Shown here: in pieces, positions 1-6,919 of the stretch
Numbering within the stretch: position 1 is the stretch's first letter
Layout of the letters: every line of letters starts with the position of its first letter
Source of the DNA: a virus
Lineage: Duplodnaviria; Heunggongvirae; Uroviricota; Caudoviricetes
Virus record (IMG/VR): IMGVR_UViG_2737471841_000008
Location: 1-6,919 of that record
Strand: one strand, 5' to 3'
DNA length: 6,919 nt
The notes under the pieces: model-generated
Told to the model about the DNA's origin: nothing
Database searches by the model: none
What the model saw: the letters and a program-made list of their open reading frames with translations, nothing else
Program-made: the position numbers and the translations under genes

Positions 1-585
1 TTACTCCCTGACAGGGTTCGTAGGCCACTCAATATCAGGTGCAGTTGATGTATCAACACGGTTCAGCAACACCCGATATTTTTTCCAGGCTTCCAGCAAT
101 GAGGTTTCTTCCTCCGTTGCGATTTCCAGATCTACAGCATCCTGAAGCGGCGCTATATGCTCACTGGCTACCTGCATCAGGCTGTTTTTTGTTTCTTCCG
201 CCTCCCGGATCCGGAACAGTTTTTCTGCTTCCGTATCCTTCACCCAGGCTGTGCCGTTCCACTTCTGAAACTCCCCTTCCGGGGATAACCAGGTGACATT
301 TTCCGGTAATGAGCCGAGTTCAGAAATAAATAACGCGTCGCCGGAAGCCACGTCATAAACCGTTTTACCCCGATGATCTTCAACGAGATGCCACGATGAC
401 TCATCACTGTTGAAAACAGCCACGAAACCAGCCGGAATATCTGGCGGTGCAATATCGGTACTGTTTGCTGGCAGACCTGTATGAGGCGGAATATATGCAT
501 CACCTTCACCAATAAATTCATTAGTTCCGGACAGCAGATTATAAATTTTTATGGTCCGTGGTTGTTCACTCATTCTGAATGCCAT
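1..585 (-). CDS. tfa: Tail fibre assembly protein (lambda Tfa-like, 194 aa)
   Basis: Complete ORF, ATG at 585-583, TAA at 3-1. Translation [18 protein letters not shown]...[11 protein letters not shown] matches from recall the phage lambda Tfa protein of the same length, almost residue for residue. Its ATG shares one base with the stop of the upstream stf ORF (TAATG at 583-587). Confidence 0.9.
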
Positions 586-1799: not shown

Positions 1800-2048
1800 T
1801 CACGCAGAAGGAATTCCCCGTCGGGCTACGGTCATGGTTAATGCGGGAATACGGCGACGATACAGCGCAGCTAAAAGGGTAATGGACAGAAAGAGCGGTT
1901 TATTTCATTCCACAGGATTCTGAGTGCCCCCCTCCTCCAATAGGCTGAGCATCCACCTATATAGTTTTAATTTTCATCAATCCATTTAACTATCGTTTAA
2001 TTGTTGTCACATAGGATTCTGCCGTTTTTAACAATGCAGGATAATAAG

Positions 2049-2342
2049 ATGAAAAAAATGTTGTTTTCTGCCGCTCTGGCAATGCTTATTACAGGATGTG
2101 CTCAACAGACGTTTACTGTTGGAAACAAACCGACAGCAGTAACACCAAAGGAAACCATCACCCATCACTTCTTCGTTTCGGGAATTGGACAGGAGAAAAC
2201 TGTTGATGCAGCCAAAATTTGTGGCGGCGCAGAAAATGTTGTTAAAACAGAAACCCAGCAAACATTCGTAAATGGATTGCTCGGTTTTATTACTTTAGGC
2301 ATTTATACTCCGCTGGAAGCGCGTGTGTATTGCTCACAATAA
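2049..2342 (+). CDS. borD: Bor lipoprotein (lambda Bor-like serum-resistance / lysogenic-conversion lipoprotein, 97 aa)
   Basis: ATG at 2049 preceded by AGGA (2038-2041); stop TAA at 2340-2342. Translation MKKMLFSAALAMLITGCAQQTFTV...TPLEARVYCSQ has a lipoprotein signal with lipobox LITGC and is near-identical from recall to lambda Bor. Transcribed opposite to the lysis genes, as in lambda and DLP12. The upstream part of the track ORF (from 2001) is rejected. Confidence 0.9.
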   Translation: MKKMLFSAALAMLITGCAQQTFTVGNKPTAVTPKETITHHFFVSGIGQEKTVDAAKICGGAENVVKTETQQTFVNGLLGFITLGIYTPLEARVYCSQ

Positions 2343-2373
2343 TTGCATGAGTTGCCCATCGATATGGGCAGCT

Positions 2374-2835
2374 CTATCTGCACTGCTCATTAATATACTT
2401 CTGGGTTCCTTCCAGTTGTTTTTGCATAGTGATCAGCCTCTCTCTGAGGGTGAAATAATCCCGTTCAGCGGTGTCTGCCAGTCGGGGGGAGGCTGCATTA
2501 TCCACGCCGGAGGCGGTGGTGGCTTCACGCACTGACTGACAGACTGCTTTGATGTGCAACCGACGACGACCAGCGGCAACATCATCACGCAGAGCATCAT
2601 TTTCAGCTTTCGCATCAGCTAACTCCTTCGTGTATTTTGCATCGAGCGCAGCAACATCACGCTGACGCATCTGCATGTCAGTAATTGCCGCGTTCGCCAG
2701 CTTCAGTTCTCTGGCATTTTTGTCGCGCTGGGCTTTGTAGGTAATGGCGTTATCACGGTAATGATTAACAGCCCATGACAGGCCGACGATGATGCAGATA
2801 ACCAGAGCGGAGATAATCGCGGTTACTCTGTTCAT
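2374..2835 (-). CDS. rzpD: Rz i-spanin (inner-membrane spanin subunit, 153 aa)
   Basis: [39 protein letters not shown]...KYINEQCR, essentially lambda Rz from recall, with an N-terminal transmembrane segment. ATG at 2835-2833 overlaps the endolysin stop (ATGA at 2832-2835). The track start at 2847 is an upstream GTG and is rejected. Confidence 0.9.
2433..2615 (-). CDS. rzoD: Rz1 o-spanin (outer-membrane lipoprotein spanin subunit, 60 aa), embedded in the +1 frame of Rz
   Basis: [24 protein letters not shown]...[29 protein letters not shown]: lipobox VVVGC and a proline-rich periplasmic part, matching lambda Rz1 from recall. Lies wholly inside the Rz coding sequence in another frame. Confidence 0.85.
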
Positions 2836-3329
2836 TGCTGACCCCACAAACAGATTTCACGCTCAATCTCACGACGAGTCATGAGACCTTTCCATTGCTT
2901 ACCGCCAGCATATGTCCAGCGACGTAGCTGATCACATGCGCCTTTGATATCGCCCTGGTTTATTTTGCGAAGAAGCGTCGATGTTCTGAAATTGCCAGCA
3001 CCCACGTTGTAAACGAATGAGTAAAAAGCGCCGCGCGTTGTTTCCGGTATATCGACTTTGATGTACGGGTTAATTTGTCTGGCGACAGTGGCAAGGTCTT
3101 TATTCAAGAGTGCTTTGCATTCTGCTTTGGTATACGTTTTACCGAGCATGATGTCTTTTCCTGTATGCCCGTGACATACAGTCCATACACCAACAATATC
3201 TTTATATGGTATGTAGCTGACACCTTCCAGACCATCGTCACCACTCGGACCAGTGATGAGCACAGACGCTATGGCAACAGCCCCACCACCAATAGCAGCT
3301 GCTACAGCCTTGCGTAATGATGGCGACAT
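2832..3329 (-). CDS. rrrD: SAR endolysin (phage 21 R-type lysozyme with N-terminal signal-anchor-release domain, 165 aa)
   Basis: [57 protein letters not shown]...: a Gly/Ala-rich weakly hydrophobic N-terminus followed by a lysozyme-like body, matching phage 21 R / DLP12 RrrD from recall. ATG at 3329-3327 overlaps the holin stop (TAATG). Confidence 0.9.
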
Positions 3330-3544
3330 TATTCACCTCTCGCAGCCTTGCGCTTATCTTCTTTAATCTTGAAATAAAGGTTTGTCAGGTACGTCAGCAG
3401 GCCAAATACCAGGCTACCCAGCACTCCAATTGCCGCCCACTGTGAGGGCGTGACTTTATCTAGCAGCTGTAAAAACCAGTACCCGGCACTACCTGCTGAG
3501 GTGCCATAGGCGACACCCGTTGTTAACTTATCCATGGATTTCAT
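3329..3544 (-). CDS. essD: Pinholin (phage 21 S-type class II holin, 71 aa) with dual-start motif Met1-Lys2-Ser3-Met4
   Basis: [71 protein letters not shown], near-identical from recall to phage 21 S. RBS GAGGTGG at 3549-3555 (minus strand). ATG codons at 3544-3542 and 3535-3533 give the 71/68 dual-start arrangement. Confidence 0.9.
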
Positions 3545-3689: not shown

Positions 3690-3999
3690 AAGCTGTGTGA
3701 CGAAGTAACCACTCTTAACAGCATAACCAATTTTTTACGTACGTAAACCACTAAATGATATTTGCGAGAATGCTACCGAGTATTGAAAACACCACTACAA
3801 ATACATAAGCAAATCTCAACAAATAACCAACAAATTATTTCCAGTGTTATTTTTAGCTTATTTAAATTGAACCTTCAAATTATAGAGCGCTTATAAATAA
3901 CAGTCGTTAATATAAATTGGCTAATAGATTTATTTTTATTCAGCAAAGAGCTATGAATAGGATTCGATAGAAAAAAGTTCAGATAAAAATAGAGATCTA

Positions 4000-4116
4000 C
4001 TTCACAAATCAAACGAGAAACCAAAACTTACATCTTGAAATAATCACATTGATTAGATGAATATTTATCGCGCAGTGACATCATTTTTTAATAATAGTTC
4101 AAAAAAAGGGCTCACG
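4000..4116 (+). promoter_or_regulatory. Porin gene promoter / 5' leader region, containing an OmpR-box-like sequence CTTACATCTTGAAATAATCA (4027-4046)
   Basis: AT-rich region immediately upstream of the porin start. 4027-4046 resembles, from memory, the ompC C1 OmpR site TTTACATTTTGAAACATCTA (about 14 of 20 positions, the left half nearly perfect). Exact -35/-10 elements not resolved. Confidence 0.3.
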
Positions 4117-5214
4117 ATGAAAAAATTAACAGTGGCAATTTCTGCTGTAGCTGCATCAGTACTGATGGCGATGTCTGCTCAGGCAGCTGAAATTTATAAT
4201 AAAGACAGTAACAAGCTGGATCTGTACGGGAAAGTTAATGCTAAGCACTACTTCTCCTCTAATGATGCAGATGATGGTGATACTACTTATGCCCGTCTTG
4301 GCTTCAAAGGTGAAACCCAAATCAACGATCAACTGACTGGTTTCGGTCAGTGGGAATATGAATTCAAAGGCAACCGCGCTGAATCTCAAGGTTCCTCCAA
4401 AGACAAAACCCGTCTTGCATTTGCAGGCCTGAAATTCGGTGACTACGGCTCAATCGATTACGGCCGTAACTACGGTGTAGCATACGACATCGGTGCGTGG
4501 ACTGACGTTCTGCCAGAATTCGGTGGCGATACCTGGACCCAAACAGATGTGTTCATGACTGGTCGCACCACTGGTGTTGCAACCTATCGTAACAACGACT
4601 TCTTTGGTCTGGTTGATGGTCTGAACTTTGCTGCTCAGTACCAAGGCAAAAACGATCGTAGCGATTTCGATAACTACACTGAAGGTAACGGTGATGGCTT
4701 CGGTTTCTCTGCTACCTATGAATACGAAGGATTCGGTATCGGTGCAACTTATGCGAAATCTGATCGTACCGACACTCAAGTTAATGCAGGGAAAGTTCTT
4801 CCTGAAGTATTTGCTTCCGGTAAAAATGCAGAAGTTTGGGCCGCAGGTCTGAAATATGACGCTAACAACATTTACCTGGCCACTACCTATTCTGAAACCC
4901 AGAATATGACTGTATTTGCTGATCACTTCGTTGCTAATAAAGCCCAAAACTTCGAAGCTGTTGCACAATATCAGTTCGATTTCGGTCTGCGTCCGTCCGT
5001 TGCTTACCTGCAATCTAAAGGTAAGGATCTTGGAGTATGGGGCGATCAGGACTTAGTCAAATATGTTGATGTAGGTGCAACCTATTACTTCAACAAAAAT
5101 ATGTCTACTTTCGTTGATTACAAAATCAACCTGCTTGACAAAAATGACTTCACTAAAGCACTCGGTGTAAGCACTGATGACATCGTTGCTGTAGGTCTGG
5201 TTTACCAGTTCTAA
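4117..5214 (+). CDS. nmpC: Outer-membrane general porin, phage-encoded NmpC/Lc type (OmpC/OmpF/PhoE family), intact, 365 aa
   Basis: ATG at 4117 with RBS AGGG at 4107-4110; stop TAA at 5212-5214. Signal peptide [23 protein letters not shown], mature N-terminus [16 protein letters not shown], porin hallmarks throughout and the C-terminal VGLVYQF ending in Phe. The track start at 4057 (MNIYRAV...) is rejected because the signal peptide begins at 4117. Confidence 0.92.
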
Positions 5215-5230
5215 TCTGATTACGAAAAAG

Positions 5231-5264
5231 ATATGTTGCGGGAGGCGTTGCCTCCCCAACATAT
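5231..5264 (-). terminator. Strong intrinsic terminator on the minus strand just past the 3' end of the porin gene (alternative candidate tR' for Q-dependent late transcription)
   Basis: atatgttg-c-gggaggc / gttg / cctccc-caacatat forms an imperfect ~14-bp GC-rich stem with one bulged C. On the minus strand it is followed by CTTTTTCGTA (RC of 5221-5230); on the plus strand there is no T-tract after it. Confidence 0.45.
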
Positions 5265-5352
5265 AAGTGGCTCCCTCAAGCCACTTCCTTTAGAAGCACA
5301 ACCTTGCTTCTAACTATATAAACCTTCTGTTATATATTACCCTTTATTTTTG

Positions 5353-5386
5353 GGGGCGTCTCAACGCCCCATTTTTAATAATTTTT
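5353..5386 (+). terminator. Intrinsic terminator on the plus strand (likely porin mRNA terminator)
   Basis: gggggcg-tctcaa-cgcccc stem-loop (5353-5370) followed on the plus strand by ATTTTTAATAATTTTT. On the minus strand it is followed by an A-rich tract, so it is not a minus-strand terminator. Confidence 0.45.
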
Positions 5387-5403
5387 AGTAAACAATTGGC
5401 ATA

Positions 5404-5787
5404 TTAATTAGAGTTATTAACAACGATATCCATCTCTAACCGGATATCTAATGCCATTAACATCCCTTCAATTATGCCCTCAGCCTTCTGTAACCTTTTC
5501 CCGATATAACCATCAGAGCAGCAATGCTTACCTGCCAGTGACATGAATGTCATACCGACTACATAATAATCTACTAATAAATCGTGCAAATCGCTGTTGT
5601 TCTTTTTCAGACGGGCCATGCACCCGCAAATGATCATCGCGTCATCGTCACAACATTGCGGGCGAGATTTTACTTTTGAAGGAATTAATCCCTTAAAACC
5701 GGCGGCAATGGACGACCAGGTCACATCTTCATGATTATTAGCCGCCCACGCTCCCCAACGTTCAAGAACCATCTGAATATCACGCAT
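5404..5787 (-). CDS. quuD: Late-gene antiterminator Q (Phage_antitermQ family; DLP12 QuuD-like, 127 aa)
   Basis: [34 protein letters not shown]...[16 protein letters not shown]...[12 protein letters not shown]... with a Cys-rich putative Zn-binding cluster. ATG at 5787-5785 with GGAG 7 nt upstream. The track start at 5802 is a TTG and is rejected. Confidence 0.85.
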
Positions 5788-6117
5788 TAACTTTCTCCAC
5801 AAAATCAGGCCAGCACACCAATCGCCAGTGCGCGATCGATAAAACGAAATATCAGCTCAAGCTGGGAGCCATACTTCTCTTCAAATGCCACGGTAACCAG
5901 GTCCACCTCGCCTGATGTGGCTAAAAGCAGGCACATAACAGCTAAGTATTTTCAACCAGAGAGAATCCTTAGCGTTGTGGTGAATGCGGCTCAGCGCACG
6001 CGGGTTAAGGTTGAGGCTGACAGTCGACCTTCTGTGGATACCCACCCGCCTGGTGTGCAACCTTCGCCAGGCACCGGGAGGCACCCGGCACCACAACTTT
6101 ATGCTGTGTGTAGTCCT

Positions 6118-6164
6118 GGCGGTACCAGCTTGTACCCTTGCTTCCGGCTGGTACCGTCCTTTTT
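6118..6164 (+). terminator. Terminator-like hairpin on the plus strand inside the non-coding region upstream of the integrase-like ORF
   Basis: cggtaccagc (6120-6129) pairs perfectly with gctggtaccg (6147-6156), enclosing a 17-nt loop, and is followed by TCCTTTTT (6157-6164). No T-tract follows it on the minus strand. Confidence 0.35.
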
Positions 6165-6253
6165 ACAAAACAGAGAAGAGCATCACCGGACGACGGGCTC
6201 ATAACCCAATCCATCCGGGCGGCAGTCACCGCAGGTGTTCTTCTCTGTTTTGT
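6165..6253. repeat. Perfect 15-bp inverted repeat (acaaaacagagaaga / tcttctctgttttgt) separated by 59 nt, directly upstream of the integrase-like ORF
   Basis: Arms at 6165-6179 and 6239-6253 are exact reverse complements. An extra cacc/ggtg pairing (6184-6187 / 6234-6237) extends the stem and the intervening sequence contains further ccgg/ccgg pairing. Confidence 0.6.
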
Positions 6254-6301
6254 GGAGAAACTAACCGACCTTGCAGGGTCGATATGATGAGGAGCAGCAA
6301 A

Positions 6302-6919
6302 ATGGCTAGCGAACGCAGTACTGATGTGCAGGCATTTATCGGGGAGCTGGACGGCGGCGTATTTGAAACCAAAATCGGCGCAGTTCTCAGTGAAGTCGCT
6401 TCCGGTGTGATGAACACGAAAACCAAAGGTAAGGTCTCGCTCAACCTGGAAATCGAACCGTTTGATGAGAACCGAGTGAAAATCAAACACAAACTCTCAT
6501 ATGTTCGCCCGACTACCGCCTGTAAAGTGTTGCGTGATCAAATAGGCAAGCATCACAAATGGGTGTTTGTACATACCAAGGCGGCTAAGCGAGCAGATGG
6601 AACATCAACGCCTGCGGTCAGGAAGATGCGCATCGACAGCAAGACATCATGGCTATCAGCTTGTCGTCGTGCAGGAATTGAAGATTTCCGTTTCCATGAC
6701 CTCAGACACACCTGGGCAAGCTGGCTGATCCAGTCAGGCGTCCCATTATCTGTGCTTCAGGAAATGGGCGGATGGGAGTCCATAGAAATGGTTCGTAGGT
6801 ATGCTCACCTTGCGCCTAATCATTTGACAGAGCATGCAAGGAAAATAGACGACATTTTTGGTGATAATGTCCCAAATATGTCCCACTGTGGAATTATGGA
6901 GGATATAAAGAAGGCGTAA
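6302..6919 (+). CDS. Integrase-like ORF (205 aa): unrecognised ~85-aa N-terminal part fused in frame to a tyrosine-recombinase C-terminal catalytic tail; probable integrase remnant
   Basis: ATG at 6302 with AGGAG at 6290-6294; stop TAA at 6917-6919. The C-terminal half ...[60 protein letters not shown] carries box II H-x-x-R (HDLRHT), the conserved Trp, and the catalytic Tyr in RYAHL. No box I TGxRxxE motif is present in the N-terminal part. The same frame stays open back to an ATG at 5984, but that stretch translates to Arg/Cys/Trp-rich sequence that does not look protein-like. Confidence 0.6.

Follow-up and report, generated by a model that had tools for sequence, protein, structure and literature searches.

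The 189-nt spacer (5215-5403) between the convergent porin and Q genes of the analyzed prophage stretch (6,919 nt, hereafter the window) is very probably explained as a whole by ipeX: the 3′ tail of the lc/nmpC porin mRNA, which ends at the last of four consecutive hairpins (H1-H4), represses ompC and ompF, and forms part of a moron that splits the antiterminator gene Q from the late promoter pR′. The element is already known. The sRNA has carried its name since 2006, and the position of its terminator is mapped.

Gene content of the window

The window belongs to a decayed lambdoid prophage of the DLP12/PA-2 type, of which it covers the region for late control and lysis. Its minus strand encodes a tail-fibre assembly gene (1-585), a truncated tail fibre (585-1799), Rz (2374-2835), a SAR-type lysozyme (2832-3329), an S21-type holin (holin S, 3329-3544, with its start at 3544) and a late antiterminator Q of the QuuD type (5404-5787, 127 aa; Pfam PF06530, 8.5e-54). 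On the plus strand, bor (2049-2342) is found together with an OmpC-like porin gene (lc/nmpC, 4117-5214; Pfam Porin_1, 1e-156), whose 3′ end is identical to lc of phage PA-2 and which carries the annotation nmpC in K-12.

Upstream of Q (5805-6919) the prophage is broken and lacks the nin-region genes. This part holds a 43-aa C-terminal remnant of a DUF968 protein (5805-5936, minus strand) and, on the opposite strand, the C-terminal half of a tyrosine integrase (Pfam match within 6302-6919, plus strand). A sub-threshold match to the Rfam sRNA STnc100 (5944-6167, plus strand; 42.4 bits compared to a gathering score of 47, E = 8e-7) sits in the same scrambled region. Towards the other end of the window, the Rfam family IS009 matches at full length inside the tail-fibre assembly gene (44-242, minus strand; 222.7 bits, E = 2e-55). 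Furthermore, a 60-aa open reading frame with a lipoprotein-type signal (…LVVVGC) is embedded in Rz in the +1 frame (2433-2615, minus strand); in position it corresponds to the Rz1 spanin gene rzoD, whose K-12 annotation lies within rzpD.

The porin-Q spacer carries ipeX

A published sRNA table places ipeX of MG1655 at 574365-574531 on the reverse strand, with a length of 167 nt. Based on the K-12 coordinates of quuD (573956-574339), positions were converted as p = 5403 - (K12 - 574340), the plus strand of the window being the minus strand of K-12. On this scale, ipeX falls at 5212-5378 (plus strand) as an sRNA and the 3′ UTR of the porin mRNA (lc/nmpC), reaching from the porin stop codon (5212-5214) to the U-tract of H4 and including all four hairpins. 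The match rests on this third-party table and on reviews, together with sequence identity: the window is 100% identical to K-12 strains over 5153-5450, to the lc record of PA-2 (J02580) over 5150-5441, and to many E. coli chromosomes over 5150-5450. Downstream of Q, MG1655 and the window are identical as far as the IS5 junction, the MG1655 spacer lying between quuD and the 3′ fragment of the IS5-disrupted nmpC. The annotation of NC_000913.3 contains no ipeX feature, and an Rfam search at E ≤ 1 found no family that matches ipeX or any other part of 5215-5403.

Literature citing Castillo-Keller, Vuong & Misra (2006, J Bacteriol 188:576) describes IpeX, the “inhibitor of porin expression”, as a 167-nt sRNA that is carried on DLP12 and PA-2 and represses OmpC and OmpF. 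According to one review, ipeX is co-transcribed with the porin gene and needs to be processed from a longer precursor; our consensus scan found no promoter-like site on the plus strand of 5100-5403. The element described here has the same sequence and the same position as IpeX of DLP12 and PA-2, extending from the porin stop codon to a Rho-independent terminator (5353-5376). Its annotated length is 167 nt, and 162-163 nt result if the count begins directly behind the stop codon and ends at the mapped 3′ end. The element itself shows no difference; only the upstream porin gene differs from K-12, as it is intact here and in PA-2 and disrupted by IS5 in K-12.

3′ UTR-derived sRNAs such as CpxQ, SroC and DapZ are chromosomal and Hfq-dependent. 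Like IpeX, they share the terminator of their mRNA and are released from, or act within, the parental transcript, whereas IpeX is carried on a phage lysogenic-conversion gene.

Four hairpins and their strand-specific T-runs

The four consecutive hairpins proposed in the initial annotation were all recovered as inverted repeats, each of which folds stably on both strands. H1 (5231-5264), the 5′ stem of IpeX, has 15 bp with one bulge and comprises outer arms of 11 nt and an inner 7-bp GC stem (5240-5246/5250-5256). It is followed by the IpeX hairpins H2 (5265-5286, 8 bp) and H3 (5290-5313, 9 bp) and by H4 (5353-5370, 7 bp, with a U-tract to 5386), the intrinsic terminator of the porin/IpeX transcript. 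On the plus and minus strand, respectively, H1 folds at -23.3 and -21.3 kcal/mol (z -5.0 and -5.9 against dinucleotide shuffles); the energies on the two strands are -10.9/-13.5 kcal/mol for H2, -10.2/-10.4 kcal/mol for H3 and -13.9/-13.3 kcal/mol for H4, and all four hairpins beat dinucleotide shuffles on either strand (z between -2.5 and -5.9). The whole RNA (5212-5378) folds at -62.9 kcal/mol (z -9.4) into H1-H4, with a mostly unpaired AU-rich linker between H3 and H4.

The asymmetry of the T-runs was likewise borne out, since only two of the eight hairpin/strand combinations, namely H1 on the minus strand and H4 on the plus strand, have a T-rich tail. The tails read CTTTTTCGT (minus strand) and AAGTGGCTCC (plus strand) for H1, and ATTTTTAATAATTTTT (plus strand) and CAAAAATAAAGGG (minus strand) for H4. 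In a d’Aubenton-Carafa-type scoring, where the ranking alone was used because absolute d-scores are unreliable with modern energy parameters (the mapped H4 falls below zero), the tail score reached 2.4-2.5 for these two combinations and 0.04-1.1 for the other six. A terminator scan found H4 on the plus strand. Minus-strand H1 was not reported, for which its bulged stem is the probable reason.

In the porin direction, H4 is an intrinsic terminator, as it combines a GC-rich hairpin and a U-tract with a measured 3′ end in K-12. The curated MG1655 Term-seq data of Adams et al. (2021) contain porin-strand 3′ ends at 574367/574366, corresponding to window positions 5376/5377 directly after H4 and ATTTTT. 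Therefore, porin-direction transcripts cross H1-H3 before they reach their own terminator, as had been anticipated from the hairpin order. A further porin-strand 3′ end in the same data (574476, window 5267) lies 3 nt past the H1 stem and is probably a trimmed end, because it has no U-tract. The study also lists a bicyclomycin-sensitive, Rho-dependent region at 574331 (window 5412, porin strand), which is antisense to the last nucleotides of Q and backs up the IpeX terminator as a second barrier.

Judged from its sequence, the minus-strand H1 hairpin with its T-run is a plausible candidate terminator for RNAs that come out of Q. Minus-strand termination would be expected at ~5222-5226, with CTTTTTCG and CTTTTAGT as sequence variants. 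The swapped arrangement of the two terminators is real, and we regard it primarily as a side effect of how IpeX is built, possibly with an added insulating role. The PA-2 record also contains a 69-aa ORF1 (minus strand, window 5053-5262), which starts inside H1 and runs antisense to the porin gene; it was set aside.

Sequence variation was analyzed across 88 loci, which comprise 32 variants. The stem of H2 shows almost no variation. In H3, three independent substitutions were observed (5294 A>G in 27 loci, 5312 A>G in three and 5307 C>T in one), all of which lead to G:U pairs in the plus-strand RNA and to A:C mismatches in the minus-strand RNA. This asymmetry would fit selection acting on the porin-strand transcript, and it was the sole informative signal of the covariation analysis, in which no compensatory double changes were found among these 32 variants.

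Predicted pairing of IpeX with ompC and ompF

The putative IpeX seed is a single-stranded stretch between H3 and H4 (5316-5350, plus strand), which is complementary to the ompC leader (-32..-2) and to the ompF start region (-15..+10). Pairing was searched in a windowed manner with the unpaired linker (5311-5352) alone, as full-length RNAduplex gave meaningless whole-length duplexes. The predicted duplexes amount to -26.7 kcal/mol for ompC (z -5.8) and -18.6 kcal/mol for ompF (z -2.9), with 0/200 shuffles being as good in either case. The start region of lc itself (-12..+20) reached -11.6 kcal/mol (z -0.6; 46/200 shuffles as good), which is chance level. The ompC duplex consists of 28 bp in two helices, an 18/19 helix over the Shine-Dalgarno sequence and a 9-bp helix free of mismatches. 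None of the 32 variants from the 88 loci has a change in the linker (5314-5350), and nt 128-142 of IpeX, published as accessible, correspond to window positions 5339-5353.

The reverse complement of 5317-5335 matches ompC-type translation start regions of many Enterobacteriaceae at 17 of 19 nt. Over its entire length (5316-5350), the reverse complement of the seed nearly copies the E. coli ompC leader from -32 to -2 (AAAUAAAGG...AUAUAACAGARGGUU), which suggests that the seed may have originated from an inverted duplication of a porin 5′ leader.

According to this model, IpeX would repress ompC and ompF through the computed duplex. The original IpeX authors reportedly found no complementarity, and the computed pairing is therefore not established as the mechanism. 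Repression of OmpC and OmpF by IpeX is a published finding in the literature on this sRNA, according to which IpeX does not require Hfq to act on ompC, and a 2025 review describes the mechanism as still unclear and not reliant on complementarity only. The two-helix ompC duplex represents a directly testable base-pairing model for an sRNA of unclear mechanism, and the extended complementarity of IpeX to ompC and ompF is the one item worth a bench test.

A comparison can be drawn to MicC and MicF, chromosomally encoded antisense sRNAs directed at ompC and ompF, which, like IpeX, present an unpaired seed against the 5′ leader or Shine-Dalgarno region of a major porin mRNA. MicC targets a region of the ompC leader, and the predicted IpeX site (-32..-2) overlaps this region. 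However, MicC and MicF have their own promoters and 5′-end seeds, while IpeX is an mRNA 3′ tail with an internal seed, and there is no sequence homology.

The late promoter homologue adjoins the holin gene

The initial annotation had considered a pR′ just downstream of Q and pointed to a weak candidate in the spacer, TTGAGA-19 nt-TAATAT. Both hexamers are present on the minus strand (TTGAGA at 5364-5359, TAATAT at 5339-5334), but their reading as a promoter is not supported: they match the consensus at 9 of 12 positions with an unfavourable 19-nt spacer, and a consensus scan with spacers of 16-18 nt found no promoter-like site on either strand of 5215-5403. The hexamers fall inside the anti-ompC seed and the terminator loop, and these two features of IpeX appear to explain their conservation. 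What looks “promoter-like” in these AT-rich hexamers is the mirror image of the ompC ribosome-binding region.

Directly downstream of Q, we found no similarity to the mapped PR′ of Stx phages, the homologue of which lies upstream of the holin gene (3747-3668, minus strand). The homologous unit (3747-3656, minus strand) comprises, in this order, a -35 element TTTACG (3747-3742), a 16-nt spacer, a -10 element TATGCT (3725-3720), the conserved motif TAAGAGTGGTTAC, and a GC hairpin with a T-run (3689-3668); the latter is a match of the terminator scan and the first intrinsic terminator after the pR′ homologue, upstream of holin S. In the alignment with PR′ of Stx2 II, Lahn1 and Sakai Sp5, the segment 3749-3668 shows 77% identity over 83 nt to the Stx-phage PR′ region, with TAAGAGTGGTTAC being identical. 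PR′ of Sakai Sp5 has the form TTTACG-16-TATCAT and starts at G745/A746 (locus L092), 6-7 nt after TATCAT. By homology, we infer that pR′ of this prophage lies at 3747-3720 (minus strand) and starts at 3714/3713. The motif TAAGAGTGGTTAC may be part of a Q-binding or pause element of this Q clade. According to dRNA-seq and Term-seq in Stx phages, 258 nt lie between the PR′ start and the downstream 3′ end at tR′. The promoter region of the DLP12 lysis cassette upstream of essD has been reported to be Q-dependent.

QuuD is 78-82% identical to the Q proteins of Stx phages over aa 1-126 and distant from Q21 (PDB 6P18/6JNX). This homology ends at codon 126, and the -35 element of the Stx phages overlaps the longer 3′ end of their Q gene, which argues that the porin/ipeX cassette, separating Q from the pR′ homologue by ~1.65 kb, is an inserted moron. 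A lambdoid pR′-qut-tR′ unit giving rise to a short RNA (lambda 6S RNA; StxS of Stx phages, PMC7547250) is expected directly downstream of Q, whereas the homologous unit of this prophage adjoins the holin gene and lies outside 5215-5403. The annotation logic would have to be corrected in that the late promoter of DLP12/PA-2-type phages does not adjoin Q, because a porin-plus-sRNA moron intervenes. As a pR′ next to Q is not supported, neither is the proposed constitutive RNA from pR′ that would be antisense to the 3′ UTR of the porin gene.

The related phage Lambda_ev087 encodes an 89% identical Q, directly followed by a hairpin with a T-run that resembles tR′ of the Stx phages (GCCAGCCTCCCCAAAGGCTGG T9; locus L005, 2879-3034). 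After Q and this hairpin, a convergent lipocalin (blc) gene is found, different from the porin. No TAAGAGTGGTTAC motif occurs within 2.5 kb, and this phage is therefore arranged differently.

Alternative roles of the hairpins and the minus strand

Could the spacer nevertheless contain pR′ (5330-5364, minus strand), with a short constitutive RNA that terminates at H1 and is antisense to the porin 3′ UTR over its full length? The hexamers are there, TAATAT does not vary, and nearly all variants retain the TTG of the -35 hexamer; in addition, the minus-strand tail of H1 is terminator-like, and an RNA running from 5327 to 5222 would fold into three hairpins. We consider this very improbable, however, as the invariance of the hexamers is accounted for by the IpeX seed and the terminator loop, and the mapped PR′ of the closest characterized Q relatives is homologous to the site near the holin gene. 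Moreover, Kim 2012, a low-sensitivity set, has no transcription start site between ybcQ and insH-2. The curated K-12 3′-end tables of Adams et al. (2021) contain no Q-direction 3′ end near H1 and none upstream of essD. Finally, an rrnB terminator inserted into the nmpC/quuD spacer of K-12 gave no phenotype, having no effect on IS5 transposition, so that little transcription seems to enter from the Q side in K-12.

The same insertion bears on a second role, which would be added to that of IpeX and is compatible with it. Here, the spacer would act as a two-way insulator, with H4 and the Rho site shielding Q and H1 stopping unmodified polymerases that come from Q, while the convergent Q (early-right) and porin units overlap by ~150 nt. 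The authors of the rrnB insertion inferred that transcription arriving from the quuD side is stopped by intrinsic terminators, the T-runs are strand-specific, and both the porin-direction 3′ end at H4 and the Rho-dependent region at 5412 have been measured. On the other hand, the minus-strand T-run is weak (5 T) and shrinks to 4 T in about one third of the loci, the K-12 Term-seq tables give it no minus-strand 3′ end, and its coding A-run is paired, in the fold of IpeX, to the U-run preceding H4, which provides another reason for its presence. We therefore hold the insulating role as a tentative addition, for which the chances appear to be somewhat below even. By comparison, it is scarcely credible that the hairpins have no specific regulatory role and are either generic 3′ stem-loops that stabilize the mRNA or dispersed repeats of the REP type. 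It is common for hairpins stacked in a 3′ UTR to stop 3′ exonucleases, and the trimmed appearance of the 3′ end at 5267 would agree with this. But the element is not dispersed, occurring at a median of one place per genome and at three at most, a similar 3′ flank was not found after the chromosomal porin genes of 78 other species, and the repression of OmpC and OmpF is mapped to this very element in the published accounts of IpeX.

During induction, transcripts from Q would cross H4-H2, and only unmodified polymerases would be stopped at H1. Such transcripts would be perfectly antisense to IpeX and the porin 3′ UTR and could therefore work as a switch against IpeX: upon entry into the lytic cycle, the Q-derived antisense RNA could lift the repression of OmpC and OmpF or destroy the porin mRNA via RNase III. 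It is unlikely that this holds jointly, i.e. that the Q-derived antisense RNA serves as such a switch at induction, that the seed descends from an inverted duplication of the ompC leader, and that it acts by plain base-pairing.

Proposed function and distribution of the cassette

In the preferred reading as ipeX, transcription would proceed from the porin promoter through the porin gene and H1-H3 and end at H4, the last step being the one seen by Term-seq in K-12. The hairpins would yield a compact, nuclease-resistant RNA, in which the unpaired stretch between H3 and H4 may pair over the Shine-Dalgarno regions of ompC and ompF and repress both. As IpeX represses ompC and ompF, the lysogen would exchange its own porins for the phage porin. 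OmpC is the receptor of PA-2. The porin and ipeX together (~3750-5410) would constitute a reverse-oriented moron inserted between Q and pR′, and the minus-strand T-run of H1 may also halt unmodified polymerases leaving Q before they run antisense through the porin gene.

Among the porin loci of 80 species, this 3′ UTR was found in E. coli and E. albertii alone. Conservation among diverged copies is higher in the 3′ UTR (91-96% identity) than in the porin coding region (87-93%) and the upstream region (80-88%). The E. coli strains SSGNw2 and 23AR0806 have a second chromosomal porin locus between yedK and fliE (L088 and L089, ~1983-3350), which may be the position of the K-12 yedS pseudogene. 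This locus is a fossil of the porin/ipeX cassette. It carries a remnant of ~100 nt of the Q 3′ end together with the DLP12 genes ybcM, ybcL and emrE, and its ipeX homologue is 91% identical, with the seed region unchanged.
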